This document shows, in pieces, positions 12,626 through 56,597 of a stretch of DNA of 64,000 nt (the first letter of the stretch is position 1; the number at the start of each line of letters is the position of its first letter). The translations under genes were made by a program, and so were the position numbers. Origin of the DNA: an uncultured Candidatus Saccharibacteria bacterium (lineage in GTDB: Bacteria; Patescibacteriota; Dojkabacteria; CAZCSM01). The notes below the pieces were generated by a model, which saw only the letters and a program-made list of their open reading frames with translations, had not been told where the DNA came from and did no database searches. The stretch is from assembly GCA_964501355.1 (NCBI GenBank), contig CAZCSM010000003.1, positions 1,660 to 65,659 of the forward strand, read 5' to 3'.

Positions 12626-12667
12626 TAGTAGGGACAGGCCTTGTGCCTGTCCTTCGTTTTTTCTTAG
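12626..12667 (+). terminator. Rho-independent terminator of dnaK; a member of the GTAGGGACAGG hairpin repeat family
   Basis: GTAGGGACAGGCC-TTGT-GCCTGTCC hairpin followed by TTCGTTTTTTC. Confidence 0.75.
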
Positions 12668-13991: not shown

Positions 13992-14050
13992 TGTAGGGAC
14001 AGGTCTTGTGCCTGTCCTAAAAGGACAACCACGAGGGTTGTCCCTACGAG
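13992..14050. repeat. Compound GTAGGGACAGG/CCTGTCCCTAC palindromic hairpin element (nested hairpins)
   Basis: TGTAGGGACAGGTCTTGTGCCTGTCC...AGGACAACCACGAGGGTTGTCCCTAC. The same family occurs at 12626, 47608 and 51275. It probably acts as a bidirectional terminator between convergent genes. Confidence 0.7.
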
Positions 14051-16814: not shown

Positions 16815-18140
16815 TCAAGTCCCTTGCGATCTTTTTGTCCTCCGAATCGCAATAATAGTTATAGAACAAAGACAAACTAGAACTACAAGAGAGTTTATTA
16901 TCAATTTAATAGGAATGACATAAAATGATATTGAACTATTTAAGCCAACGGTGCCATCTTCACTTTTTACTTCTATCTCTGCATTATATTTCCCAAACAG
17001 ATACTTAAATTCCCATGAAGGAGAATCTTCTTGACTCTCCAATCGCCTTATTGTTCCGGGAAGAACAGTTGTTTTATCAAGAACAATCGTATCAACAATA
17101 TCACCTTTTCGATCTCTAATTTTTATCGTCCCATAAGCATTGTAGTGTAGTGTTCCTGTATTATTCACTCTTGCTGTAAACTCAACCGGGGAAATAAAGT
17201 TCCAGTCGTTCTTTACAGAAAATTCAACAATTTGACCGCTCTTCACAAGTTCTCCAAGGATTTCTCCTGAGTGAACAAAGTTGATATAACTTAGTATTCC
17301 GATTTTTCCGGTAACAAAAGACCCTGAACCGACTGTTGTTGATGCGGTGGGTATTGGTTCAATAAAAATTACATAATAGTATTCACCTTGTGGCAAAGTC
17401 TTTTCACCGTAAAAGTTGGCCGTAATAATTTTTGATGAATTGGCTGGGATTTTGACGGTGGATTCACTGAAGATAATTTCAATTTCTTTCTTTTCTTTTT
17501 CAAGAAAGTTTAATTTTCCATATTCTCCCACGATCTCAAATTTTTCGTAATAAACAAGATATTCTTGATCCAGGTTATTTAAGTTATAAACTTTAATTTC
17601 TTCATTCTTCGTTTCTTCTGCAACCAAATCCATTTCAAATTTAATTGGGTCTACGCCAAGAGAAGTTTTATCTTGAGCGTGAATTGGATGAGGGAAGAGT
17701 ATAGATGCTAGAGATAATATGGACATGAATGGAATTAGAGTAGCTAGTAGTTGGTAGCTAGTAGTTGTGGACTTTCTGATGCTTGAGATAAGCGCATTTA
17801 TTAACTTGGCAATCTCAATGCTTGTATTGGCTAATTCTTTAAAGACGTCTCGTTTCATGTAATCCAAATCTTTTGCAATTATTAATTGGTTTTGAACTTC
17901 CGTTAATGAACTAACGGAGACTTGATAGAATTGGATCTTTTCCTTTCTCGACCTTCTCGAAAATCCTTCTGCCAAATTACTGGTTATTGAAACGGCGGCT
18001 CGTCGTATTTGTGAGGAAAGTCCATATAATTCTTCCTTTGGAAATTTGTTTGTAATGCTGTAAATATCTAAAACAAAAACATGTCCTTTTTGCCAGGCTA
18101 TTAAATCGGTAAAGTTTTTAATCTTCTTGTTGTCGTCCAT
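16815..18140 (-). CDS. Fusion ORF: an N-terminal Avd-like four-helix-bundle domain (TIGR02436 / 23S-rRNA-IVS protein family) joined in frame to a signal-peptide surface protein with a C-terminal TM anchor
   Basis: Residues 1-~120 'IAWQKGHVFVLDIYSITNKFPKEELYGLSSQIRRAAVSITSNLAEGF...' are a classic four-helix-bundle protein with a strong RBS (AGGAG N6 ATG at 18140). The remainder starts at an internal Met (~17736) with signal peptide 'MSILSLASILFPHPIHAQ' and ends with a TM plus 'RRTKRSQGT'. Imperfect direct repeats GTAGCTAGCAACTAG / CTAGCTACCAACTACTAGCTAC flank the bundle module. Confidence 0.6.
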   Translation of the reverse strand: MDDNKKIKNFTDLIAWQKGHVFVLDIYSITNKFPKEELYGLSSQIRRAAVSITSNLAEGFSRRSRKEKIQFYQVSVSSLTEVQNQLIIAKDLDYMKRDVFKELANTSIEIAKLINALISSIRKSTTTSYQLLATLIPFMSILSLASILFPHPIHAQDKTSLGVDPIKFEMDLVAEETKNEEIKVYNLNNLDQEYLVYYEKFEIVGEYGKLNFLEKEKKEIEIIFSESTVKIPANSSKIITANFYGEKTLPQGEYYYVIFIEPIPTASTTVGSGSFVTGKIGILSYINFVHSGEILGELVKSGQIVEFSVKNDWNFISPVEFTARVNNTGTLHYNAYGTIKIRDRKGDIVDTIVLDKTTVLPGTIRRLESQEDSPSWEFKYLFGKYNAEIEVKSEDGTVGLNSSISFYVIPIKLIINSLVVLVCLCSITIIAIRRTKRSQGT

Positions 18141-21898: not shown

Positions 21899-22406
21899 TT
21901 TCTAGATTCTTCACCAGTACAAGTGTAGAAATTATTCCAAACCCGACTGCAATTATCGCCGTCCAAATATGTGATTCTGCTTTCGCGGCATTTACAGTTG
22001 TTAGAATAATAGCTAACCAGAGAAATGCGAGCCATACGATTGCTTTTGTGTAAATTGATAAAGAAGATTCAATCGAAGATAATCTGTCTTTATCAGCAAT
22101 TTGAATTAACTTTTGTGGCGTAATTCTCGAATCCTGAAAATGATTTAATTTATATAAAACATAATTAAAACCAATAACTGGAACAATTAGCATTAATAAA
22201 TTTGAAAAAGTGTTTACCGTTAGCAAATCATTTAATGATTGAAATGTTATTTCATAAGGAATTATCTTTCCATTTTCGACTTGGTTTATTTCATATTTCA
22301 GTCCAAATAGGATTACCGCAAGAACCATACCACCAACTTTCGAAAGTACCAAAGCAAGAGACGGTATTATTGATTCATCAACAAGTTTTATTAATGTTTT
22401 CGACAT
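21870..22406 (-). CDS. Hypothetical integral membrane protein
   Basis: Four or five predicted TM helices. Confidence 0.5.
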   Translation of the reverse strand: MSKTLIKLVDESIIPSLALVLSKVGGMVLAVILFGLKYEINQVENGKIIPYEITFQSLNDLLTVNTFSNLLMLIVPVIGFNYVLYKLNHFQDSRITPQKLIQIADKDRLSSIESSLSIYTKAIVWLAFLWLAIILTTVNAAKAESHIWTAIIAVGFGIISTLVLVKNLEIDYTGKKQN

Positions 22407-22461
22407 GAGACTTGGCAGATTTATTACATCTTTAGAATAGAGAATAATTGGGGAAGAGTAA

Positions 22462-22624
22462 AGGGGAATTCAAAATGCAAATATTTCGATAAACTCAGCA
22501 CAAGTCTCAAAAATCAAATCAAAAATAAAAATATAATTCAGTATAAAGGATGTATCAAAGTAGTTGCAAAATAGATAAAAATGGTTACAAAGTTGTTAAA
22601 ACATTGTTCAAACGTAGATAAAAC
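22462..22624 (+). repeat. Direct repeat copy A (~160 bp), upstream boundary of the DGR island
   Basis: AGGGGAATTCAAAATGCAAA...AAAAATAAAAATATAATTCAGTATAAAG..TCAAAGTAGTTGCAAAATAGATA.AAATGGTTACAAAGTTGTTAAAACATTGTTCAAACGT.GATAAAA is nearly identical to 27046-27194. Confidence 0.85.
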
Positions 22625-22927
22625 GCCCTGTTTCTCCTCCTTTTTTACCCACGCCTTGGCGGGGCAAGCAAGGAGGGGTGATTCCGAAGGAATCGGGGTG
22701 GTTGAGGGAAGTGCAATAGGGTTCCAAAACCTTTCTGCGAAAAGATAGTTTGATAAACTCATCACAGGTTTAGGAACCATCGGTAGTTTTTAATTTGGAA
22801 TTTTGGTAATTGTAATTTGTTTGGAAATTGAGATTTGGAAATTGGTGCTTAAATGTTGTGCCAGTCACTCACTTTCGGGTGACGGTTTACAATCAGAACG
22901 CTAAATGAACATAAGTTGTCATTGCGA

Positions 22928-23016
22928 GGAGTGTAACGACGAAGCAATCTCTTGAAAATGGGATTGCCACGCTCGCCCCGCCTTGGCGGGACAAGCTCGC
23001 AATGACAAAACACACT
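22928..23016. mobile_element. MITE-like palindromic element with 11-bp terminal inverted repeats GTCATTGCGAG / CTCGCAATGAC
   Basis: Perfect 11-bp TIRs enclose GC-rich hairpins. The internal sequence recurs at 46286-46310 (ATTGCGAGGAtTGTgACGAtGAAG) and 19081-19110 (CACGCT.GCCCCGC..GCGGGACAAGCT). Confidence 0.6.
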
Positions 23017-23101
23017 CATTGAACAGCCCTACTTCTTCTTGACTTCACTCCACACTTTACGTATTCTGAATATGTAGAATTCTATATTACACAAATCCAT
23101 C

Positions 23102-24031
23102 ATGAAAATTCAGAAACGTGATATTTTAATCTTTTCTATCGGTGTGCTCATTACCTTAGCATTTTCTCCATTCTTCAAATCTCTCGTTTCCGCGGAGCAA
23201 TCCGGCACTACTCCAAATAGCGGAGCAACATCATACATCAAACAACTTTACGATTCGCTGGTATCACTAGGCAATGGTTCTGATTCATCGGGATCATGGG
23301 GAGATTGGGGAGGGATGTGGAATAGGATTCGCTCATCTTCGGAATGGGTGCCAAGCGGAGATGCAACTGCGGGAGATGTGGTGGCGGGGAAGATGTTTTA
23401 TGGCAATTCAAGAACGCAGATGATTGGGACTGGTCCAGAACCGATAGATTTTTCACTTTTTCAGTACAGTGCCAGAGACGATTACGCAGGTGCATACTAT
23501 ACAGGACTTGGACCTGAAGACTATCAGGGCGAGGAAGCGGAATGGACAGATCATAGTGTTGATGCTGATGTGGTCTGGAAAGATGAACGGGCAGGTATGT
23601 ACTGGACCGCTGACAGAGGAATTCTGACTGCGAATAATTTCACAATGGCAACCTGTCAATTTTTCACATCAGAGCCTAGATCGAGTTATGACGGGAGCGA
23701 CTTGACATGTGGGGGGACAGCAGAAGAACCTCATGCGATAAACTACTGTGCTACACTAGATTATGGAGGAAGAACCGACTGGTATCTACCATCTCAGAAG
23801 GAGCTAATGATGGCATACATAGATGGTATGTACAATCAGGCAGGAGCTACACCAGCAGAAGCAGCAGCATTTACGTATGGCACTTCAGGAGGTGGTGGTT
23901 ATCGGTTCTGGTCGTCTTCCGAGGTGTCTAACAATCCAACAAACGCTTGGACCGTAAACATGAGCATCGGCAACACGAACTACACCATTAAGACGAATGC
24001 GCTCGCCGTTAGGTGTGTAGCGAGGGACTGA
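23102..24031 (+). CDS. DGR target protein: a secreted/membrane-anchored DUF1566 (Lcl-like C-type-lectin fold) protein with a C-terminal variable region
   Basis: N-terminal signal/TM segment. 'CATLDYGGRTDWYLPSQKEL' is the DUF1566 hallmark. The C-terminus '...YRFWSSSEVSNNPTNAWTVNMSIGNTNYTIKTNALAVRCVARD' is the VR, matched by the TR at 24361-24483. Confidence 0.85.
   Translation: MKIQKRDILIFSIGVLITLAFSPFFKSLVSAEQSGTTPNSGATSYIKQLYDSLVSLGNGSDSSGSWGDWGGMWNRIRSSSEWVPSGDATAGDVVAGKMFYGNSRTQMIGTGPEPIDFSLFQYSARDDYAGAYYTGLGPEDYQGEEAEWTDHSVDADVVWKDERAGMYWTADRGILTANNFTMATCQFFTSEPRSSYDGSDLTCGGTAEEPHAINYCATLDYGGRTDWYLPSQKELMMAYIDGMYNQAGATPAEAAAFTYGTSGGGGYRFWSSSEVSNNPTNAWTVNMSIGNTNYTIKTNALAVRCVARD
23906..24028 (+). 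other. DGR variable region (VR)
   Basis: 123 bp aligning with the TR. The 5' 45 bp are identical. The 3' part shows 11 substitutions, 10 of them at TR adenines (AAC->ACC/AGC/ATC/TAC/CTC, AAT->ATT, ACA->ACG, GCA->GCG). It ends GTTAGGTGTGTAGCGAGGGAC. Confidence 0.85.
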
Positions 24032-24065
24032 TGATTAGAATTTAATAATTTCTTATTTAAAATTT

Positions 24066-24091
24066 ATCATCCGATCTTTAGATCGGATGAT
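24066..24091 (+). promoter_or_regulatory. Perfect stem-loop 38 bp downstream of the VR (ATCATCCGATC-TTTA-GATCGGATGAT)
   Basis: 11-bp perfect stem with a 4-nt loop. Its position matches the DNA hairpin/cruciform that enhances homing in characterised DGRs. Confidence 0.6.
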
Positions 24092-24360
24092 TTGCGACAA
24101 AAAACTACTATATTGAAAAAACTAGTAAAGTGGTGTAGATTATTGTCGCGTGGATTCTATAGTTACAACTTCATCGTAAGCTCTGAGCTATAGGGAAGGC
24201 CCGATTTTCAGTCCGTTCCACTGCACCTGATTTTTTCAGGTATTATTATTCAGTGAGACTTTTTCGCTGAAATGCGAATCAGTCTTATGGTGGATTCTGT
24301 GTTAGACAAGATTCTAATGTCTTGTCTTGCAGAATAAAGTCAGTGGGAAATAGCGTTGTG

Positions 24361-24483
24361 TTCTGGTCGTCTTCCGAGGTGTCTAACAATCCAACAAACG
24401 CTTGGAACGTAAACTTGAACAACGGCAACACGAACAACAACAATAAGACAAATGCAAACGCCGTTAGGTGTGTAGCGAGGGAC
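24361..24483 (+). other. DGR template repeat (TR), adenine-rich (AAC-codon rich)
   Basis: TTCTGGTCGTCTTCCGAGGTGTCTAACAATCCAACAAACGCTTGGAACGTAAACTTGAACAACGGCAACACGAACAACAACAATAAGACAAATGCAAACGCCGTTAGGTGTGTAGCGAGGGAC, in the same orientation as the VR (plus strand). Confidence 0.85.
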
Positions 24484-24497
24484 TTATCATCGGGCTT

Positions 24498-24857
24498 TTA
24501 CGCAGTCTGGTTCTCCGACCACTTGATCCATCCGTTAAGCATTTTAGCGATTTCCTCATTTTGGGATATTATGTAAGCATACTGTTGGGAAGCGATAAGT
24601 TTCAACTCATGTGCCATACGCAGTCGTGATTTCAACCTGTCAAACGAAGCAGAAGCTTGACGAATAATTCCAGCCTTTTGAGTGTTTTGGCGAGTATTCG
24701 TAGCAATTATTTTATCAAGAGTTTCCCATGCACAGTCAATTATTGATTGACCAAGCGTGTACTTATATTCTTTTTTGAAATTCCTGACAAGTAGATACAA
24801 ATATTTCAAAAGTTTGTATGTGGCTACATACAGAGGAAGTTCGTCTAATTTGCTCAT
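24498..24857 (-). CDS. avd: DGR accessory variability determinant (Avd)
   Basis: 119-aa basic helical protein immediately downstream of and 4-bp overlapping the RT. Size and position are typical of Avd. Its 3' end abuts the TR. Confidence 0.75.
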   Translation of the reverse strand: MSKLDELPLYVATYKLLKYLYLLVRNFKKEYKYTLGQSIIDCAWETLDKIIATNTRQNTQKAGIIRQASASFDRLKSRLRMAHELKLIASQQYAYIISQNEEIAKMLNGWIKWSENQTA

Positions 24858-26056
24858 TTTTGTTTTGCAACTAAAGTAAAATATGAATAATTGTCATCAA
24901 TTGGCACTAAGTACTCTTTCAAAGTTCCAAAATGATTTTCATACAGATCTCTACGAAGATTGAAGCAGTTCGCATGTTTAAAATGTCCGTAGTACGAATT
25001 AACCATAGCTAGCATCTTTCTTAACTCTTGCTTTGTTGGGGGTGTAGACAACGGTAATACCATCTGTTTTTGATTTTGCGAAACAAGCAGTTTCCCCTGA
25101 TTGAAGTAATGAAGCTTCGTTTTGAGATTTTGCACCACACGTTTTCTTGCCAGAGTATATTTAGGCTTAACTATATAACCAATAAAATCTATTCCTGAAT
25201 AAACTGAATTGTATTTATCCTTATTTGGGTGAAGTATCAATTGTAAATTTTTCTGTAGAAAAGTGTTTATCTTTTTCCTCCACTGTTTTATCTTATTCAT
25301 ATCATTTGAAATAACGACAAAATCATCAACATACCGTATGTAGTGCTTGATTTTCAACTCACGTTTTACGTACTGATCAAGCTCATTCAAGTATACGTTA
25401 GCAAAAAATTGTGATGTTAAATTTCCTATTGGAAGTCCTTTGTCTTTCCCAGCTTTAAAAAGCGTTTTGTGAGGCGGTATCTGTTTTAGAAGAGATCTAT
25501 CACCTTTGAAGAAAAAATTATCGGTAGGATTATGGTTAAGAATAATTTCTGTGAGCCAGATCAGGTCATCCTTTCTATGTTTTGGAAAATGATTTTCTAT
25601 CTCACTGATGATGATTTCTTTTAGAATATTTTTATCAATCGAAGTAAAAAAGCTTCTGACATCAAACTGCCCATAAAACGCTTTTTTGCTGTAATTTCCT
25701 GTTACGGATCGAATAGCTTTCTTGAGACAGGTTATGGCAGTCAGAAGCCCTTTGTTTTTCCTGCATGCAAAAGAAGAATAGATGAACCGTTTTTCAAAAT
25801 GAGGCTCAAGGTGTGATACAAGCAGATGATGGATAATCCTATCTCTAAAATCGGCGGCAAACACCTCTCTGATCTTCGGATATGTAACCACAAAACAGAT
25901 AGACTTGCCAGGTCTGTACGTTCTGTTTTTCAGTTCTTCAAAAAGCTTCAGGATACTGGATTCAAAATTCATCTCAAACTTAAGAGAGTTAATGGTATTT
26001 CGTTTGTTCTTTCTGCAGGAAAGGTAAGCTTTTAATAAATCTTTTAGTGTAAACAT
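24854..26056 (-). CDS. DGR reverse transcriptase
   Basis: RT motifs 'PKIREVFAADFRDRIIHHLL' and 'YVDDFVV' (YxDD). The DGR-specific 'LPIGNLTSQFFANVYLNELD' (I/LGxxxSQ) replaces the QGxxxSP of other RTs. Confidence 0.9.
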   Translation of the reverse strand: MFTLKDLLKAYLSCRKNKRNTINSLKFEMNFESSILKLFEELKNRTYRPGKSICFVVTYPKIREVFAADFRDRIIHHLLVSHLEPHFEKRFIYSSFACRKNKGLLTAITCLKKAIRSVTGNYSKKAFYGQFDVRSFFTSIDKNILKEIIISEIENHFPKHRKDDLIWLTEIILNHNPTDNFFFKGDRSLLKQIPPHKTLFKAGKDKGLPIGNLTSQFFANVYLNELDQYVKRELKIKHYIRYVDDFVVISNDMNKIKQWRKKINTFLQKNLQLILHPNKDKYNSVYSGIDFIGYIVKPKYTLARKRVVQNLKTKLHYFNQGKLLVSQNQKQMVLPLSTPPTKQELRKMLAMVNSYYGHFKHANCFNLRRDLYENHFGTLKEYLVPIDDNYSYFTLVAKQK

Positions 26057-26122
26057 ATGAAAAGATAAGAAAGATGTTTAAAAATCTCTTCAATTATTGT
26101 ACTATGGTATTATAATAATTAA

Positions 26123-27001
26123 TTGATTATGAAAAACATGCTCAAAATACGAATTATTGTAACCCTTCTTCCTCTTTTGTTAGCGACATTTATAGTTCCA
26201 AGTGCAACTTTTGCTGCTTCGGTTTCTCTCAAAGGTACAGCTGAAGTTGTGAATACTGGCAATTCACTATTATTCGAATCGAATAACAGTGCTGTTACTG
26301 TTGATACTGAAACTGGTAATTTATCAGGATTTGTTTGGTCGGAAGATTTGGGTTGGATTGATTTTGATAATAATAGCGGTGCTAATTCTGCAAAGATTAA
26401 TCTGGAAACAGGTGTAGTTTCAGGCCTTGCTTATGTAGTTAACACTGCTTCCATTGTTGATTTTACAAATTTCAATAGCAATGTCATTGTTAATTTAGAA
26501 ACTGGTGTTTTCACTGGCTTTGCATGGTCAGTCGAGCTTGGGTGGATTGATTTTTCAACTGTAAATACAGGTGGAGTGAAATTGGTGCTTGATGAAAACT
26601 TTGTAAATATAACAACGATCGATTCTGAAACTGCACCGGTAGATGGTGTGTGGAAAGTGACTAATAAAAAACCAGTACTTTCAGGAATAACTGCACCAAA
26701 TGCTGTAGTGACTATAACTTTAACGAGAGACGGAACATCAGTTGATGTAGAGGTTATTGCTGATGCTGAAGGTAAATGGAGTTGGACTCCAACAAGTGAT
26801 TTGGTGCTTGGCGCTTATACTGTGAGAATCGTGTCAGAAAATGCAGATGGCGTAATTTCCGAGACTACATTTACTTTAAATATAATGATTTCTGATTTAG
26901 CAAGCTCTGGACTTAGTAATCCGTATGTGATGATTGTTCTAACGATTGTTGGAGTCTTGGTTGTGGTTTTTTCGGCTAAGAAGAAGGTCGTAACAATGTA
27001 G
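26123..27001 (+). CDS. Secreted surface protein with a signal peptide and a C-terminal TM anchor, inside the DGR island
   Basis: Signal peptide 'LLPLLLATFIVPSATFAAS'. It has repeated 'TG..SG..WSE.LGWIDF' motifs and C-terminal 'VMIVLTIVGVLVVVFSAKKK'. Confidence 0.6.
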   Translation: MIMKNMLKIRIIVTLLPLLLATFIVPSATFAASVSLKGTAEVVNTGNSLLFESNNSAVTVDTETGNLSGFVWSEDLGWIDFDNNSGANSAKINLETGVVSGLAYVVNTASIVDFTNFNSNVIVNLETGVFTGFAWSVELGWIDFSTVNTGGVKLVLDENFVNITTIDSETAPVDGVWKVTNKKPVLSGITAPNAVVTITLTRDGTSVDVEVIADAEGKWSWTPTSDLVLGAYTVRIVSENADGVISETTFTLNIMISDLASSGLSNPYVMIVLTIVGVLVVVFSAKKKVVTM

Positions 27002-27045
27002 ATGCAATGTTGAATCAATGTGGTAGCAATGTTGAAGAATCGTAG

Positions 27046-27194
27046 AGGGGAATTCAAAATGCAAAAATCAAAAATCAAAATAACAAATCAAAAATAAAAA
27101 TATAATTCAGTATAAAGAACGTTTCAAAGTAGTTGCAAAATAGATACAAAATGGTTACAAAGTTGTTAAAACATTGTTCAAACGTGGATAAAAG
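27046..27194 (+). repeat. Direct repeat copy B, downstream boundary of the DGR island
   Basis: See copy A. It is followed by a dense array of GC-rich hairpins at 27200-27410 (CCTTCC-TAATAA-GGAAGG, CCCCTTCTTTTTAGAGGGG, GTCAC-TTC-GTGAC, CCTTCC-TTTTTA-GGAAGG). Confidence 0.85.
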
Positions 27195-27379
27195 GTAGAA
27201 TAATCCTTCCTAATAAGGAAGGTGGGCTTTGCGAAGCAAAGGTCGGAAGGTGTAAACAATTAAACACACCCCGGCTTCACTTTGTTCAGTCCCCCTTCTT
27301 TTTAGAGGGGATCTGACGGAAGGCGTTGTAGAGGATACCTTCTGTCACTTCGTGACACCTTCCTTTTTAGGAAGGAAGA

Positions 27380-27407
27380 ACAAAAAAGGTCCAGACATGT
27401 CTGGACC
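27380..27407 (-). terminator. rpsT terminator: a perfect 20-bp palindrome GGTCCAGACATGTCTGGACC followed by a U-run on the minus strand
   Basis: On the minus strand the hairpin is followed by TTTTTTGTTCTTCC, 24 nt after the rpsT stop. Confidence 0.75.
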
Positions 27408-27430
27408 CTACGAGTTCTGAAAATTCCTAC

Positions 27431-27694
27431 TTATTTTGCAATAGAGTTTACTTTCTTTGCCATTCTAGATTTTAGTCTAGCGGCTGTGTTTGGGTGCATA
27501 AATCTTCTTGCTGCTTTATCAAGAGCTTTTGTTGCTTCTTGAAGTTTGGTTGTAGCTGTTTTTGCATCTTTTTCTACAACGGCTTTATTCGTTTCTTTAA
27601 CCAATCTCTTCGTTTTTACTCGAATCTTTTTGTTAATTTCAGCTTTTCTTCCTTGTACTCTGATTGCTTTTTTTGCGTTTGCTAAATTTGCCAC
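27431..27694 (-). CDS. rpsT: 30S ribosomal protein S20
   Basis: 'ANLANAKKAIRVQGRKAEINKKIRVKTK...ARRFMHPNTAARLKSRMAKKVN' matches S20 ('ANIKSAKKR...HKNKAAR'). The likely GTG start is at 27694. The longer 137-aa ORF call carries a non-S20 N-terminal extension. Confidence 0.8.
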   Translation of the reverse strand: MANLANAKKAIRVQGRKAEINKKIRVKTKRLVKETNKAVVEKDAKTATTKLQEATKALDKAARRFMHPNTAARLKSRMAKKVNSIAK

Positions 27695-36818: not shown

Positions 36819-37445
36819 ATGAAAAAGAATTCGATACTTTTAGTCGCAATGGGAATCCTTGCTTTTGTTGCTGTTGCAATTGTGGCAGCACGAGTTCTGA
36901 CTCCTGAAGATACATGGCTTTGTGACAATGGTGCTTGGGTAAAGCATGGAAACCCTTCTGATCCTGCTCCAACAACTGGGTGTGGTGATGATGCTGTTGA
37001 GTCCGAGGTCTCGAATTTTGAAGAATGTGTGGCAGCGGGCAATCCTGTGATGGAGAGTTATCCGAGACAGTGTGCAAGTAATGGTGAAACATACGTTGAA
37101 AATATCGGAAATGAACTTGCAATGATTGATCAAATCATCGTTAATTATCCTCGTCCTAATAACGAAGTTGAAGAGAGTTTCCTTTTATCCGGTGAGGCTA
37201 GGGGAACCTGGTTTTTTGAAGCAGAGTTTCCTGTTAAGCTTCTGGATGAAGATGGGAATGTATTATTCTCAGGTCCTGTTATGACGGATATGGATTGGAT
37301 GACGGAAAGCTTCGTTCCTTTTCAAACTGAAATTGTTTTCAATAGACCGGCTTCAGAAAAGGGAACTTTGATTTTAGAGAAGGCGAATCCTTCCGGTCTT
37401 GAGGAAAATGCGGCACAATTGGAAGTTCCAGTGGTGTTTAAGTAA
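36819..37445 (+). CDS. Secreted hypothetical protein
   Basis: Signal peptide 'LLVAMGILAFVAVAIVAA' with Cys pairs in the mature part. Confidence 0.5.
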   Translation: MKKNSILLVAMGILAFVAVAIVAARVLTPEDTWLCDNGAWVKHGNPSDPAPTTGCGDDAVESEVSNFEECVAAGNPVMESYPRQCASNGETYVENIGNELAMIDQIIVNYPRPNNEVEESFLLSGEARGTWFFEAEFPVKLLDEDGNVLFSGPVMTDMDWMTESFVPFQTEIVFNRPASEKGTLILEKANPSGLEENAAQLEVPVVFK

Positions 37446-37639
37446 GTTCAAAAATCAAATACTTCGACAGGCTCAGTACAGGTGGAGGATCAGACACATT
37501 ATAGTCACTAACTATAAATGAAGTCGGTAGATATGTTTTTAGTGTTGTGTTTTGTTAACAAAAGTTTTTAATTTGAGGCTAGTAAATAGTTATGTTCCTT
37601 TTGACACCAAATAACCCCCTTTGTTGCTTCGCAACATTT

Positions 37640-37842: not shown

Positions 37843-37882
37843 GTCTCGTGTCTGATTCTCCCTCCGGAGAATGACACGAGAC
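37843..37882. terminator. Bidirectional terminator hairpin between convergent genes (GTCTCGTGTC...GACACGAGAC)
   Basis: 10-bp stem enclosing a TTCTCC-CTCC-GGAGAA palindrome, followed by TTTTGATCTTTC. The inner palindrome is the reverse complement of the 46343-46370 element. Confidence 0.65.
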
Positions 37883-37901: not shown

Positions 37902-38660
37902 TTACTCCGGCCTCAATGTTCCTGCAAATACCTGCCATGCAAGGGCTGATTTTGCAAGTAAACTTAGCAGAATATACATGAATTCTCCGAATAGATAATT
38001 CTTCCACTTTCCTTTCTTTTTGTACTGCATATACATATTCAGTGAGAAAGTATTAAAGAATAGGAATATTGAGAAGAATATCCAATAAACGAAATCGGGT
38101 GCTTTATATTCCCCTTCGCCTGACCCAAAAAGATGGAGTGCAATTACAACCCATGGAACCGCTCCGGCAAAACAACCTACTGCATAAGAAATCCAGTTCG
38201 TTTTCATTTTGCCCTGATTCCAAACTTCCATCATCAATCCGCAAAGAATCATAATTGCATTTATTGAGAACATTAAGACAATGGTTGAAAGGTCATAAAC
38301 GCCAGTCAGCATAGCAATAAGAACAATCATAATTGATGAGCTAAATGCATATTCGTACCATCTTGCTAAATTCATTCCTTTCTTCAAATTCTTTTCATAC
38401 CAATTGAATGCCGGCCCTGCAATTATCAAATGTGCGAATGCGGAAATTAATAAGAAAGATGCAACAAAAGGTCCGAATTTTAAATCAAACACGGTTTCAG
38501 TTTGCGGCACTAATTTCTGTGTTGCGACATCAAATTGTAAATAGTTTGTATTTACTGGAAGTGAGAAATCATTACTTAGGAAAAACATTAATATACCTTG
38601 CACTGCGTGGAAAAGGCCCATGACGAGATTGTAAATCCTGAGCTTTTTGAAATCGTTCAT
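37902..38660 (-). CDS. Integral membrane protein (hypothetical)
   Basis: Six to seven predicted TM helices. Confidence 0.5.
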   Translation of the reverse strand: MNDFKKLRIYNLVMGLFHAVQGILMFFLSNDFSLPVNTNYLQFDVATQKLVPQTETVFDLKFGPFVASFLLISAFAHLIIAGPAFNWYEKNLKKGMNLARWYEYAFSSSIMIVLIAMLTGVYDLSTIVLMFSINAIMILCGLMMEVWNQGKMKTNWISYAVGCFAGAVPWVVIALHLFGSGEGEYKAPDFVYWIFFSIFLFFNTFSLNMYMQYKKKGKWKNYLFGEFMYILLSLLAKSALAWQVFAGTLRPE

Positions 38661-41565: not shown

Positions 41566-41579
41566 AGTTTTTCATTGTA

Positions 41580-41737
41580 CTACTTTTGCAAACAAAAGTA
41601 GCCAAAATTTCTGGGACAACCTAGTTTCGACAAATAGCAATCAGATACAGATAACTACCGGAATAGGTTGGCCCAGACCCCAACGACTAACAGTCCAATA
41701 CCAAATTACAAAGGGAAGGCGGACTGTTACTTCTTTA
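41580..41737 (+). repeat. Structured intergenic element copy R2
   Basis: CTACTTTTG-CAAAC-CAAAAGTAG hairpin, CCAAAATTTCTGGGACAACC...GGTTGGCCCAGACCCCAACGACTAACAGTCC...CAAATTACAAAGGGAAGGCGGACTGTTACTTCTTTA. Confidence 0.65.
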
Positions 41738-46260: not shown

Positions 46261-46463
46261 AAATGGTTAACAGTTTGCTGAAATTGCGAGGATTGTGACG
46301 ATGAAGAAGATGAAAATATAATTTTGCGGAACCCTATTTTATGTCATTCTCCGGAGGGAGAATCTGACATAAAATATTCATCGTATACATTCAATTGTGT
46401 CTTATCCTCCACCTGTGGTGAGCCTGTCGAATCCATTCGGAGGATGACACAAAAGAGGATTTA

Positions 46464-47531: not shown

Positions 47532-47607
47532 CTGTTTATGTATCTTATCTAAAACGTTACGATTATAGCAAAAATAGTGAGTAGTAAGTAGTGAATAGCG
47601 AGTAGTG

Positions 47608-47683
47608 TAGGGACAGGTTTGAAACCTGTCCCTACGTAAGGTGTCATTCCGGACAGCGATTTTAGGAGCGTGATCCGGAATTT
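47608..47683. repeat. Tandem palindromic repeats: a GTAGGGACAGG hairpin followed by a GTGTCATTCCGGA...TCCGGAAT element
   Basis: GTAGGGACAGGTTTGAAACCTGTCCCTAC, then GTGTCATTCCGGACAGCGATTTTAGGAGCGTGATCCGGAAT. The latter matches the reverse complement of 19081-19135. Confidence 0.7.
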
Positions 47684-48994: not shown

Positions 48995-49093
48995 GATAAT
49001 AATTTTTTACTGTAATGATTATTCAGCTTGGATTATAACATTTTATTATCATTGCGAGGAGGGGAATCTTTTTTTAATAAATATTGAGACTAT

Positions 49094-49246
49094 GTTACTT
49101 TTTACACAAAAAGTAACCAAAAGTGCTGAAACAACATAGCGCCTCAGATAGCAACCTTGAAACAAATAACTACCGGCATACGTTGTTTCAGACTTCGACG
49201 ACTGGACAACCCAATACAAATAACAAGGGGGCTGTTACTTCTTTAC
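49094..49246 (+). repeat. Structured intergenic element copy R3, in the fmt 5' region
   Basis: GTTACTTTTT-ACAC-AAAAAGTAAC hairpin, CCAAAAGTGCTGAAACAAC...GTTGTTTCAGACTTCGACGACTGGACAACCCAATACAAATAACAAGGGGGCTGTTACTTCTTTA. Confidence 0.65.
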
Positions 49247-50909: not shown

Positions 50910-50954
50910 AACCGAAGTTATTCGATAAGCCGAATTTTGTATTCATCAACAAAG

Positions 50955-51247
50955 ATGAACGATGATCATCTATCTAAGCTGCCTACTCTTTGGCATTGCT
51001 CTAGATGGGGGTTACAATGCGTACGTCATTACTGACAATACCGGTGGTCTCTTACACCGCCTTTTCACCCTTACTTATCTTTCGATAAGCGGTATATTTT
51101 CTGTGGCCCTTTTCTCCGTGAGATTGCTCCCACCCAACTTTCGTTGGCATCACGACCTTCGATTTTGCTGGAGGACTTGTCCTGAGCTTGTCGAAGGAGA
51201 GTCCGGACTTTCCTCAGTGCTTGCGCACCGCGATCATCTGAATAACT
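50955..51247 (-). ncRNA. rnpB: RNase P RNA (bacterial type, reduced)
   Basis: The minus strand reads ...CAGATGATCGCGGTGCGCAAGCACTGAGGAAAGTCCGGACTCTCC... (P4 5' strand GGAAAGUCCGG) and ...AGTAAGGGTGAAAAGGCGGTGTAAGAGACCACC... (consensus GGGUGAAAnGGUGcGGUAAGAGCGCACC). It ends with GGCAGCTTAGATAGATGATCATC, closing P1 with the 5' GATGATC. TATAAT lies at 51255-51260 on the minus strand. Confidence 0.8.
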
Positions 51248-51302
51248 TACGGTGCTATTATAGCATTTTTTGTGATGTAGGGACAGAGTATTACTCTGTC
51301 CC

Positions 51303-51337
51303 TACAGAAAAAGAAAAGTCACCCGATGGCGGGTGAC
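51303..51337 (-). terminator. Rho-independent terminator of the 51361-51780 gene
   Basis: Minus strand AAGTCACCCGCCATCGGGTGACTT followed by TTCTTTTTCTG. Confidence 0.7.
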
Positions 51338-52110: not shown

Positions 52111-52116
52111 ATATTG

Positions 52117-54840
52117 ATGAAATTTACAGTTAATCAAAAAATATTTGAAAAGTACCCAAATGTAATTCTTGGTATTATTCATGTTTCAGATTTGCAGAAT
52201 AAGAAAGAATTTGAAAAAGAGGATGCGATGGAATTTCTACAAGGTCATGAAGCAAATGTGCGGGAATTCTTGAAAGAGAATGAAATAACAGATTTGTCTG
52301 TTGTTCAAAACTGGCGTGAGATATTCCAATCTTTTGGTTCAAAACCAAGTAAGTTCAAATCGTCAATTGAAGCACTCCTTCGTCGTGAGAAAAAAGGAGA
52401 GGCTTTGCCTGATATTAATCCGTTGGTTAATTTTTACAATGCTCTTTCATTACATTACAAAATCCCATTTGGAGCAGAGGATTTAACAAAAATTGTTGGC
52501 AATGTTGAACTTACATTTTCTGATGGAACGGTTGCTTGTCAGTTGATTGGTGATAATGAACCTAAACTTGCAGATGAGGGTGAAGTTGTTTACAAGGATG
52601 ATGTTGGCGCAATTTGCCGCAAGTGGTGCTGGCGAGAATCGGATCGTACAAAGATTACAGAGGAAACAACTGATGCCTTCTTCGTTATAGAATTTAATGA
52701 CGGTGATTTAGAAAATGCAAAGCAGGTTGTTGCAGAAACAATCGATGCAATGAATCACTTCTTCGATGTGAAAACACAAAGCTGGATTGTAAATAAAGAT
52801 AATAATGAAATTGAAATTCCGTTTGGAACGAAGCAAGAAGGAGAAAAACTGGTTGTGCAGGAACGAAAAGAATCCGCCTTCGCCAAGGCTTCGGCGGACA
52901 AGAGAGAAAATAAGGTATATCAGCCGAAGACGAATATTGAAGCGAAGGTTTTTCAAGTCTTATCGTTAGTTGTCAAAGAAAAGTTTGGAGAAGAATTTGT
53001 TTCAGATATTGAGCTTGAGCATCCGGCAGATGAATCGCATGGTGACCTCGCGACTAATATCGCAATGAAATTAGCCGGAAGGTTGAAACGAAATCCAAGA
53101 GAAATTGCGCAGGAAATTTTTGAAGAGTTGGATCCAATGGTTCGCGGTATGTTGAAAAAAGGTGATAGAGTAACACGGGTAACCTATTTTGATTTTCCTA
53201 ATGGTTTGATAGGCGATGTTAAGATTGCAGGATCGGGATTTATCAACTTCTTTATTCATAAAGAGAGTTTGGTCTCTGAGATTAAAGACATGAACGAATC
53301 ATATGGTAAATCTTCAAAATATTCCGGTCAAAAAGTTTTACTTGAGCACACTAGTGCCAATCCCAATAAAGCTATGCACATTGGGCATGTTAGAAATAAT
53401 ATTCTTGGTAACTCATTAATAAAACTTCTCGAAGCGGTGGGATATGAAGTTACTGCGGATTACATTGTAAATGATCGCGGGGCTTCAATCTCGAAGGTAA
53501 TGTGGGGTTACCTGAACTTTGCGCAAAAGCAAAATAATCAGGTTTTGAGTACGTGGGAGGATATTAAAGTAAATCTCGCAGGAACAAACTTCGATGAACT
53601 ATTATCAACATGGAATAATTCTCCTGAGCAATGGTTAACACCGGAAGATTTTGAAAATCTGAAATCAGACGAGATGATGGAAAAAGTTTATGTTCTTGCG
53701 TCTCATGCATCGAAAGAACTTGATTGGGTAGATGCTCAGGTCTCGAAGATTCTTGTTGATTGGGAATCAGAAATTCCTGAGAATCGAAAACTTTGGAAGC
53801 AAATATTAGATTGGGTTTTTTCCGGACAGAAGAAAACGATGGCAAGAATGGGAAGTCGGACAGATCATTTCTGGTTTGAGAGCGATTTCTATAAGGAAGG
53901 AAAAGAAATTGTAACAGAAGGATTGGAAAAAGGAGTTTTTCGAAAAGATGGAACGGCAATTATTACCAACTTTGAGGAACATGGTTTGCCGGATACAATT
54001 GTTATCAAATCTGATGGAACGGCGCTTTACATCACGCAGGATTTGAAACTTACTGAATTAAAAACTCAGAAATTCCCATCCAATAAATATATCTGGGTAG
54101 TCGGTGCGGAACAAAAATTAACGCTTCAACAAGCTTTCCTCGCAGATCATCTATTAGGTATTGTCGACAAAGAAAAACTTTATCACTTTGCCTATGGACT
54201 ATTTACAACTGCATCCGGAGAGAAAATTGGATCTCGAAAAGGAAATGTTGTTTCTGCAGATAATCTTCTGGATTTAGTTACAGATAGCGCAAAGAGCGTA
54301 ATTGAAGAGAAGGGGTTGGAATATTCAGAAGACGAGAAACGAAATATTGCAGAGAAAGTAGGGATTGGGGCTTTGAAATATTTCATTTTGAAATCTAACC
54401 CGTTAAGTTCTCTGAAGTTTGACGCTATAGAAGCAACCTCGTTTGATGGTAATACCGGCCCATATTTGCAGTACACTTATGCGAGGGCAAAAAGTATATT
54501 ACGTGATTCGGACTCCCACCACCCCGATTCCTTCGGAATCACCCCTCCTCGGGCAGAAGGGGAAAATTTGTTTGTTGCGGATTCAGAAATGGCGCTCCTT
54601 CGAACTCTGTACAGGTTTCCTGAATCTGTAATCAATGCAGCAGAAAACTATGCACCGAATTATGTCGCCGATTACATTTTTGATCTTGCGCAGAAATTCA
54701 ATGCGTTCTATCGCGAATGTCCTGTTCTTAGCGCAGAAGACTCCGTAAAGAACTCAAGATTGTTATTAACCGCTTCGGTTGCACAGGTATTGAAGAACGG
54801 ATTAAACCTACTGGGGATCGAAACGTTGGAACGAATGTAA
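52117..54840 (+). CDS. argS: Arginine--tRNA ligase with an N-terminal B3/4 (tRNA-binding) domain fusion
   Basis: Residues ~300-908 carry the Arg_tRNA_synt_N domain ('IELEHPADESHGDLATNIAMKLA'), the class I 'HIGH' motif ('PNKAMHIGHVRNNILGN') and the anticodon-binding C-terminus. Residues 1-~240 resemble stand-alone B3/4-domain proteins. An in-frame palindromic repeat lies near codon 800. Confidence 0.88.
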   Translation: MKFTVNQKIFEKYPNVILGIIHVSDLQNKKEFEKEDAMEFLQGHEANVREFLKENEITDLSVVQNWREIFQSFGSKPSKFKSSIEALLRREKKGEALPDINPLVNFYNALSLHYKIPFGAEDLTKIVGNVELTFSDGTVACQLIGDNEPKLADEGEVVYKDDVGAICRKWCWRESDRTKITEETTDAFFVIEFNDGDLENAKQVVAETIDAMNHFFDVKTQSWIVNKDNNEIEIPFGTKQEGEKLVVQERKESAFAKASADKRENKVYQPKTNIEAKVFQVLSLVVKEKFGEEFVSDIELEHPADESHGDLATNIAMKLAGRLKRNPREIAQEIFEELDPMVRGMLKKGDRVTRVTYFDFPNGLIGDVKIAGSGFINFFIHKESLVSEIKDMNESYGKSSKYSGQKVLLEHTSANPNKAMHIGHVRNNILGNSLIKLLEAVGYEVTADYIVNDRGASISKVMWGYLNFAQKQNNQVLSTWEDIKVNLAGTNFDELLSTWNNSPEQWLTPEDFENLKSDEMMEKVYVLASHASKELDWVDAQVSKILVDWESEIPENRKLWKQILDWVFSGQKKTMARMGSRTDHFWFESDFYKEGKEIVTEGLEKGVFRKDGTAIITNFEEHGLPDTIVIKSDGTALYITQDLKLTELKTQKFPSNKYIWVVGAEQKLTLQQAFLADHLLGIVDKEKLYHFAYGLFTTASGEKIGSRKGNVVSADNLLDLVTDSAKSVIEEKGLEYSEDEKRNIAEKVGIGALKYFILKSNPLSSLKFDAIEATSFDGNTGPYLQYTYARAKSILRDSDSHHPDSFGITPPRAEGENLFVADSEMALLRTLYRFPESVINAAENYAPNYVADYIFDLAQKFNAFYRECPVLSAEDSVKNSRLLLTASVAQVLKNGLNLLGIETLERM
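54508..54565. repeat. Palindromic GC-rich element inserted in frame within argS
   Basis: GGACTCCCACCACCCCGATTCCTTCGGAATCACCCCTCCTCGG. Its reverse complement, GAGGAGGGGTGATTCCGAAGGAATCGGGGTGGT, matches the intergenic sequence at 22671-22702 over 30 of 30 core nt. It encodes '...SDSHHPDSFGITPPRAEGE...'. Confidence 0.75.
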
Positions 54841-56402: not shown

Positions 56403-56457
56403 AGATTACATAAACAGTGTTTGGTTAAGGTCAGAAAAATAACAATAATTTGATAAT

Positions 56458-56597
56458 GTTACTTTTGTCACCAAAAGTAACCAAAAGTGCTGAAACAAAC
56501 CAGTTCCAACAAATAGCAATCAAATACAAATAGCTATCGGAATGGCTTGTTTCAGACTTCGTCGACTGTCCGACCTGATTCAGATAACAGAAGGAAC
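56458..56597 (+). repeat. Structured intergenic element copy R4
   Basis: GTTACTTTT-GTCACC-AAAAGTAAC hairpin, CCAAAAGTGCTGAAACAAACC...GGCTTGTTTCAGACTTCGTCGACTGTCCGACCTGATTCAGATAACAGAAGGAAC. Confidence 0.65.

Follow-up and report, generated by a model that had tools for sequence, protein, structure and literature searches.

The arginyl-tRNA synthetase (ArgRS) gene argS on contig CAZCSM010000003.1, from a genome that we judge to be Patescibacteria-like on the basis of its ArgRS relatives, carries a short GC-rich double-hairpin element whose 32-nt core recurs, perfectly inverted, in an intergenic region of the same contig. We analysed this element within a stretch of 64,000 nucleotides (64 kb; hereafter the window) and consider it probable that a repeat of intergenic habit entered argS at the linker between two domains of the enzyme, where it would now persist as a tolerated passenger without a function of its own. 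The inverted match, the structure of the element, the variability of the linker that it occupies, its absence from the nearest relatives and its membership of a repeat family found in another phylum carry this reading, and each is taken up below together with the points that weigh against it.

The double hairpin in the argS linker

A repeat search of the window revealed that positions 22671-22702 of the plus strand are the perfect reverse complement of the argS core, with 100% complementarity over 32 nt; the intergenic side of the match reads AGGAGGGGTGATTCCGAAGGAATCGGGGTGGT. A 30-mer from the match occurs exactly twice in the window and was not found in 100 dinucleotide-preserving shuffles, even with up to three mismatches allowed. 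Beyond the 32 nt, the argS and 22.6-kb regions have no simple collinear similarity, and the resemblance stops abruptly at the edge of the core. On the sense strand of argS, the full module reads CCACCCC-GATTCC-TTC-GGAATC-A-CCCCTCC-TCGGGCA-GAAGGGG (54519-54562; core string CCACCCCGATTCCTTCGGAATCACCCCTCC), followed downstream of the second hairpin (hairpin B) by AAAATTTG, and it conforms to a general family frame of (A/C)CACCCC-N6-70-CCCCTYY-loop-RRAGGGG (coordinates of all features are given in Table 1). An earlier, sequence-only reading of this DNA had described a hairpin sequence of ~45 nt in argS and its exact inverted match to the intergenic site, both of which stand as described, but the match extends over 32 nt and not 30, and the module occupies codons 802-816/817 and not ~797-815. 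Its in-frame peptide is HHPDSFGITPPRAEG, with E as the next residue, whereas the peptide quoted in that reading, DSDSHHPDSFGITPPRAEGENLF, corresponds to residues 798-820. The element is open in five of six reading frames (every sense frame and all but one of the antisense frames), and two spurious open reading frames (ORFs), 22538-22780 (-) and 54443-54631 (+), both carry the peptide TTPIPSESPLL as an alternative frame of the same DNA, just as had been proposed.

The intergenic copy shares with argS the 5' part and the first hairpin (hairpin A), and it forms its own hairpin B from arms at 22670-22676 and 22636-22642 (CCCCTCCTT...AAGGAGGAG), the loop of which holds a nested extra hairpin, GCCCCGCCAAGGCGTGGG. 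This copy folds with a minimum free energy of -35.3 kcal/mol (z -4.2), a stability equalled by none of 200 shuffled sequences, whereas the argS copy folds no better than its shuffled counterparts (z 0.0) and has a C.A mismatch in hairpin B. Such a decay would be expected if terminator-like structure were selected against within an essential gene. A terminator scan of the window nevertheless flagged argS hairpin B together with the following AAAATTTGTT, weakly, and among the element copies this was the only one flagged.

The reading frame of argS continues unbroken across the element, as the sequence-only reading had stated, and the product is a B3/4 domain fused to a complete ArgRS, with P. 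horikoshii 2ZUE as the best solved homologue (E 1.5e-67). The element lies in the linker that joins the catalytic core to the DALR domain, a segment present in every ArgRS compared. Its length is 28 aa in this protein; the four nearest relatives have 23-25 aa and 34 aa, 2ZUE has 23 aa, and 120 homologues span 15-34 aa (median 21 aa). The spacing between the conserved RD and LF motifs that border the linker core is 19 aa here (SDSHHPDSFGITPPRAEGEN) and 15-17 aa in the relatives, and the element supplies ~15 of these 19 residues, while the weak xxLKxxQxD pattern of the relatives' linker is absent. A simple insertion would thus require an ancestral linker core of only ~5 aa, which argues that the element replaced the core. 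The earlier description of a short peptide insert of 15-20 residues within the anticodon-binding domain therefore has to be revised: the segment fills a universal, variable linker, and since the ancestral core would have been lost, this linker exceeds that of three of the four nearest relatives by only 2-5 aa. In an AlphaFold2 model of residues 270-908 (58-sequence alignment, mean pLDDT 91.9), residues 800-819 are predicted within a coil (model residues 530-553) with a pLDDT of 55-62, between two helices (model residues 513-529 and 554-563) with a pLDDT of 94. The model thus points to a disordered loop of surface type, a location that the sequence-only reading had proposed to check by modelling.

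The element is also the most GC-rich 16-codon stretch of argS (62%, compared with 39% for the gene) and is rich in rare codons (CCC 0.09, CGG 0.05, GGG 0.11), a composition in line with a foreign origin of fairly recent date. The closest ArgRS proteins among 5.8 billion sequences are 48-68% identical, and in the four nearest relatives (loci L032, L033, L034 and L035) the DNA that encodes the linker shows no hairpin and no GC spike and is of ordinary GC content; the argS segment is therefore lineage-specific, a point that the sequence-only reading had proposed to check by an alignment of orthologs. Synteny with the relatives is kept on both sides, with fmt first, then argS and then a Mg-chelatase-like gene.

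Our data suggest a model whereby a short GC-rich double hairpin, normally intergenic and terminator-like, was copied into argS in sense orientation and in frame, where it would now form the core of the variable linker between the catalytic domain and the DALR anticodon-binding domain. The linker core could have been replaced in a single event, or an insertion could have come first and a deletion later, and the copying route may have been templated patch repair or gene conversion, or mobilisation in trans; the 32-nt identity with its sharp edges is compatible with transposition and, to the same degree, with a short patch left by templated repair or gene conversion. The copy would have been tolerated because the element is open in most reading frames, because the linker has no conserved sequence and ranges from 15 to 34 aa across ArgRS, because the net change in length is small and because the segment is, in the structural model, a flexible loop. 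Within argS the element is most likely functionless, and its second, terminator-like hairpin is already weakened. If so, an essential enzyme of a streamlined AT-rich genome can absorb selfish or structural repeat DNA where neither length nor sequence is constrained, and the interdomain linker would have been re-coded, not extended.

Several further observations concern argS itself. A second GC-rich hairpin, TCCGCC-TTCGCCAAGGCTTC-GGCGGA, lies at 52873-52899 (+), where the B3/4 domain is linked to the ArgRS N-domain, and encodes SAFAKASADK; it is present in a single copy in the window, and the relatives P0002 and P0005 have at this position a lysine-rich stretch that is 2 aa shorter. argS may thus have taken up two hairpin-derived linkers. 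The N-terminal B3/4 domain (PF03483, 52114-52900) is common in Patescibacteria-like homologues, although P0003 and P0004, the two closest relatives, are without it. The RNase P - argS neighbourhood is common to the relative L035.

A modular repeat family shared with Cloacimonadota

The sequence-only reading missed that the element has relatives in another phylum, the Cloacimonadota. We scanned GTDB, with one representative genome per species and the source genome not included, for CCCCGATTCCNNNGGAATCACCCC and found 11 sites in four Cloacimonadota metagenome-assembled genomes (MAGs), with a further one in an archaeon of the Nanobdellati (DPANN). The same pattern was found on 19 contigs in JGI metagenomes, 18 of which are of Cloacimonadota type (19 sites) and one of which is 73%-GC DNA. 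By our own arithmetic (21 specified bases, 2 x 596 Gb), about 0.3 matches are expected by chance per scan of a genome collection, and the match in 73%-GC DNA (L020) looks like such a chance match. The archaeal site (L001, 2150-2215, minus strand) reads CCCCGATTCC-CTG-GGAATCACCCCC...GGGGG, with the stem of hairpin A, another loop and a possible second hairpin, and it could be either a true archaeal member of the family or a chance match.

The Cloacimonadota copies are identical to the argS copy over 28 consecutive bases (CACCCCGATTCCTTCGGAATCACCCCTC) and in their two-hairpin layout. They read AACACACCCCGATTCCTTCGGAATCACCCCTCT-loop-AGAGGGGA, fold far better than shuffled sequences (z -3.8 to -4.8) and end in a perfect 7-bp GC stem with an A/T-rich tail. 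A broader scan, which covered the retrieved loci and allowed variant middle hairpins, gave 41 matches at 26 distinct sites and revealed a modular frame, in which constant (A)CACCCC and (A)CCCCTCT-loop-AGAGGGG parts enclose at least seven different middle hairpins, some of them with nested insertions. Across loci L002-L031, the frame was seen as constant ACACCCC and ACCCCTCT-loop-AGAGGGG around swappable, sometimes nested middle hairpins, and insertions in the loop of hairpin A distinguish orthologous sites of different MAGs (L003 at 6967 compared with L005 at 7391). None of the 26 Cloacimonadota sites lies in a credible gene, three of them overlapping short open frames that we judged spurious. 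At 16 of 23 sites, the upstream neighbour is directed toward the element, and 12 of the 41 matches are found at a distance of 5-23 nt from where a protein match to a ~120-aa DUF559 gene (PF04480, E 1.2e-31) ends, with 2 nt between the DUF559 stop codon and the element where the ORF was traced. Locus L024 has tandem DUF559 genes with one copy after each.

Three copies of the element were seen in the 64 kb, one of which is coding. The layout of CACCCC, hairpin A, CACCCC and TC..hairpin B recurs at 22636-22702 (-) and again, though divergent, at 27266-27310 (+). This third member was found by a pattern scan and has the frame of the Cloacimonadota consensus, while its middle part differs and no pairing is predicted for it. 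The argS copy and the full intergenic copy both have CCACCCC and TCCT, where the Cloacimonadota copies have ACACCCC and TCT; because these derived features are shared, the two window copies are each other's closest relatives and, within the lineage, one would stem from the other or both from a shared copy.

We found no paper that describes this repeat family. At the gathering score, the window contained no Rfam match to it; five Cloacimonadota loci had none either, and no family matched at E up to 10 over 22300-27500, a range that does not include the argS copy. The general pattern had no match in viral contigs, and a 29-mer of the candidate phyla radiation (CPR) type, the variant of this genome, had none in JGI metagenomes. 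A concatenated-peptide query of all open frames yielded 600 candidates that share words, none of which reached E <= 10 at that database size, so that the query says little on in-frame copies elsewhere. The main by-product of our analysis is thus an undescribed modular repeat family, with a 28-nt core identical in a Patescibacterium and in Cloacimonadota and often tied to DUF559 genes. It also carries a warning: where GC-rich peptides such as HPDSFGITP or TPIPSESPL turn up in metagenomic proteins, they represent translated repeat sequence.

How the element may have come to lie in argS

Several points weigh against the view that the argS copy is a passenger repeat. This genome shows just three family members, as seen within the 64-kb window, and no other in-frame copy was found; the copies outside argS are intergenic apart from the three overlaps with frames that we judged spurious. 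Neither a transposase nor a RAYT (the tyrosine transposase associated with repetitive extragenic palindromic, or REP, elements) nor a DUF559 gene is present within the window, as judged from Pfam scans of 54 window ORFs (every ORF of 110 aa or more, nested frames and lepA set aside), and no DUF559 gene or remnant was found by tblastn near the window copies. There is also no target-site duplication; the only flanking direct repeat, GATTCGGA / GATTCAGA, was rejected as one because it encodes the linker ends DSD / DSE, so that an ancestor with a single copy would have had no linker. The perfect 32-nt identity in a fast-evolving linker could be a sign of a sequence under selection. Finally, with the nearest relatives at 48-68% identity and no true empty site among them, we infer the timing and the path of insertion plus deletion.

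A different view of the same repeat, which we regard as unlikely, is that it is a double-hairpin cassette, mobile across phyla (Cloacimonadota, Patescibacteria and perhaps DPANN archaea) and possibly linked to DUF559. The first hairpin is bracketed by a direct repeat of (A)CACCCC in every variant, as if the CACCCC repeat were a target duplication made when small hairpins insert in the 5' shoulder of a ACACCCCTCT...AGAGGGG terminator. Hairpins are nested in one another's loops, and many copies accompany genes for DUF559, a Vsr-like nuclease. Were such hairpins mobilised by DUF559 or another enzyme, the copy in argS would represent the footprint of an undescribed hairpin-targeting mobility system that can enter coding DNA.

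All four of the remaining explanations are less likely than a passenger repeat. The best of them, still rather improbable in our estimation, is that selection keeps in argS a functional cis-acting RNA signal, such as an attenuator or pause site or a hairpin bound by an RNase or another protein at the domain boundary. The flagging of hairpin B and its AAAATTTGTT by the terminator scan, the cluster of rare codons exactly at the domain boundary and the lack of any substitution in 32 nt, despite the fast evolution of the linker in relatives, would all be in accordance with such a signal. However, the argS copy folds like a shuffled sequence, its hairpin B is mismatched and four A precede the T-rich run; and since none of the four nearest relatives has a hairpin at this position, argS does not need one.

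We consider it very unlikely that the two copies form a trans-acting antisense pair, in which a plus-strand RNA from the 22.6-kb intergenic region pairs over 32 nt with the argS mRNA and regulates argS. The plus strand at 22671-22702 is indeed perfectly complementary to the argS sense strand and lies within a well-folded region; yet a consensus scan, which is weak evidence either way, showed no plus-strand promoter-like site upstream of 22671, and the promoter-like sites that were found run along the minus strand or sit downstream at 23039. Moreover, the family has intergenic copies in Cloacimonadota, which carry no such argS target. The reverse direction, with a linker native to argS and an argS fragment copied to the intergenic region, is hardly more than conceivable: the 32-nt identity alone is silent on direction, but the same core and two-hairpin layout occur at many Cloacimonadota intergenic sites and a third variant lies at 27266-27310, while the segment in argS is, by its composition, foreign to the gene that holds it and is missing in relatives, and the intergenic copy has no flanking argS sequence. 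Least credible of all is an artefact of assembly or binning, whether by chimeric joining at a short repeat or by contamination with Cloacimonadota DNA; although the contig is metagenome-assembled and repeats can seed misjoins, the ArgRS frame continues on both sides with the conserved SILRD ... LFVADSEMALLRTLYRFPE aligned to relatives, and the fmt - argS - Mg-chelatase-like order is kept, whereas a misjoin would alter the sequence context.

Two other sources of the shared sequence were rejected. The 32-mer did not originate as a CRISPR spacer, as it has no flanking direct repeats and itself belongs to the hairpin family. Off-target retrohoming by the diversity-generating retroelement (DGR) of the window was set aside because its variable repeat (VR) and template repeat (TR) share 3' ends (GCCGTTAGGTGTGTAGCGAGGGACT) unlike the element.

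In-frame palindromic repeats in genes are well known, from the Rickettsia palindromic elements (RPEs) and from ERIC, BOX and QMITE (PMC10969869, PMC2229807), and the argS case as a passenger repeat is an example of this known phenomenon, with no new mechanism. RPEs are ~150 bp long and fall into ten Rickettsia families with dozens of copies per genome, about half of them in ORFs (PMC10969869). The sequence-only reading had called the argS element RPE-like, and by analogy its behaviour is: both are palindromic hairpin repeats that occur between genes and in frame inside housekeeping genes (PMC10969869), and both give rise to a peptide where the fold tolerates it, here in a predicted coil of low pLDDT within a linker that varies among the 120 homologues. 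The likeness does not extend to size: an RPE unit is about 100-150 bp with one long palindromic hairpin, whereas the present unit is 44 nt in argS (67 nt between genes) with two short hairpins. RPEs are present in many copies per genome, a good part of which sit in frame in unrelated ORFs and specify a conserved peptide; the present element has three copies in 64 kb and a single known coding copy. In addition, RPEs are described as adding a new surface module, which sets the argS element apart, since here a linker was probably replaced, and the lineages are unrelated.

REP and REPIN elements are likewise short (20-40 nt), GC-rich imperfect palindromes, dispersed, mainly extragenic and sometimes clustered or nested, but they have a 5' tetranucleotide of GTAG type and a cognate RAYT (a Y1 transposase), where the present family starts with (A/C)CACCCC and the Pfam scans of the 64-kb window contain no RAYT. 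Terminator-like repeats of the SPRITE type resemble the element in a unit similar to an intrinsic terminator that clusters with, or nests into, other repeats (PMC10969869); the present family differs in sequence, in host phyla and in its two-hairpin frame with a swappable first hairpin, and the terminator likeness of the present element is a prediction from its sequence. The small non-autonomous repeats ERIC, BOX, Correia and QMITE also occur occasionally in frame within ORFs (PMC10969869, PMC2229807). Transposable elements of the miniature inverted-repeat class (MITEs), to which these repeats are counted, share this small, non-autonomous character and occasional in-frame location, but they are usually 100-400 bp long, with terminal inverted repeats and target-site duplications, neither of which is seen here.

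The mitochondrial DNA of fungi contains GC-rich double-hairpin elements, which are dispersed in an AT-rich genome and have been reported within coding regions. They resemble the argS element in having two adjacent GC-rich hairpins but are organellar and unrelated in sequence.

Neighbourhood of the intergenic copies and other features of the window

The intergenic element had been placed beside the repeat that flanks the DGR island, and it does adjoin a direct repeat of ~175 nt, at its left copy; the two copies of this repeat bracket the DGR cassette (Table 1). One family member lies immediately to the right of each copy of this direct repeat, and both members are intergenic. The direct repeats are 84-98% identical by segment and contain an 11-nt periodic motif, and a consensus scan revealed minus-strand promoter-like hexamers within each copy. 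The DGR cassette lies within 22448-27204, and its TR-to-VR differences are mostly at TR adenines.

Table 1. Coordinates of the element, its host gene and the DGR neighbourhood (positions in the window)
Feature	Position	Strand	Remarks
argS	52114-54840	+	908 aa; Pfam B3_4 PF03483, Arg_tRNA_synt_N PF03485, tRNA-synt_1d PF00750, DALR_1 PF05746
ArgRS interdomain linker	54505-54588	+	D798-E825, between helix ...YARAKSILR and first DALR helix MALLRTLYRFPE
32-nt core	54518-54549	+	reverse complement of 22671-22702; none expected by chance
Full two-hairpin module in argS	54519-54562	+	~45 nt (44 nt); encodes H802-G816
Hairpin A	54526-54540	+	GATTCC-TTC-GGAATC; preceded by CCACCCC
Hairpin B	54542-54562	+	CCCCTCC-TCGGGCA-GAAGGGG; one C.A mismatch; separated from hairpin A by A
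Intergenic full copy	22636-22702	-	67 nt; 5' part and hairpin A (22680-22694) same as argS copy
Divergent third member	27266-27310	+	ACACCCC-GGCTTCACTTTGTTCAGT-CCCCCTTCTTTTTAGAGGGG; found by pattern scan
~175-nt direct repeat, left copy	22448-22623	+	brackets DGR cassette
~175-nt direct repeat, right copy	27032-27204		brackets DGR cassette
DGR target gene	23102-24031	+	Lcl_C domain
DGR TR	~24360-24490	+	
bAvd gene	24498-24857	-	
DGR reverse transcriptase (RT) gene	24854-26056	-	

Other repeats were also observed. Two more GC-rich hairpin repeat pairs, 37463-37498 / 46396-46431 and 37849-37876 / 46342-46369, are 92-96% identical and lie in convergent intergenic regions, just past the stops of tgt, of the gene at 36819-37445 and of the heliorhodopsin gene. 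It seems to be a general trait of this genome to carry terminator-like hairpin repeats. A hairpin family starting with GTAG (GTAGGGACAGG...CCTGTCC) is found at 12628-12653, 13993-14018, 47607-47632 and 51266-51316; GTAG is the tetranucleotide typical of REP elements, and no RAYT gene accompanies this family in the window. In addition, a ~148-nt intergenic repeat is present in three plus-strand copies (41570-41717, 49085-49232 and 56449-56596), in which a local hairpin is conserved; a long-range stem, CTGAAACAAC...GTTGTTTCAG, reads CTGGGACAAC...GTTGGCCCAG in one copy, with both sides of the stem changed. This repeat had no Rfam match and is a candidate structured RNA or regulatory repeat.

Among the genes of the window, a 441-aa protein encoded at 16815-18140 (-), distant from the DGR, has an N-terminal four-helix-bundle domain of the 23S-rRNA-intervening-sequence or Avd-like type (PF05635) and a C-terminal hydrophobic segment. 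The RNase P RNA (class A, 167 bits) lies at 50910-51249 (-) and is overlapped by a spurious 124-aa ORF at 50962-51336, and the heliorhodopsin gene of this Patescibacteria-like genome lies at 37902-38660 (-; PF18761, E 3e-99).

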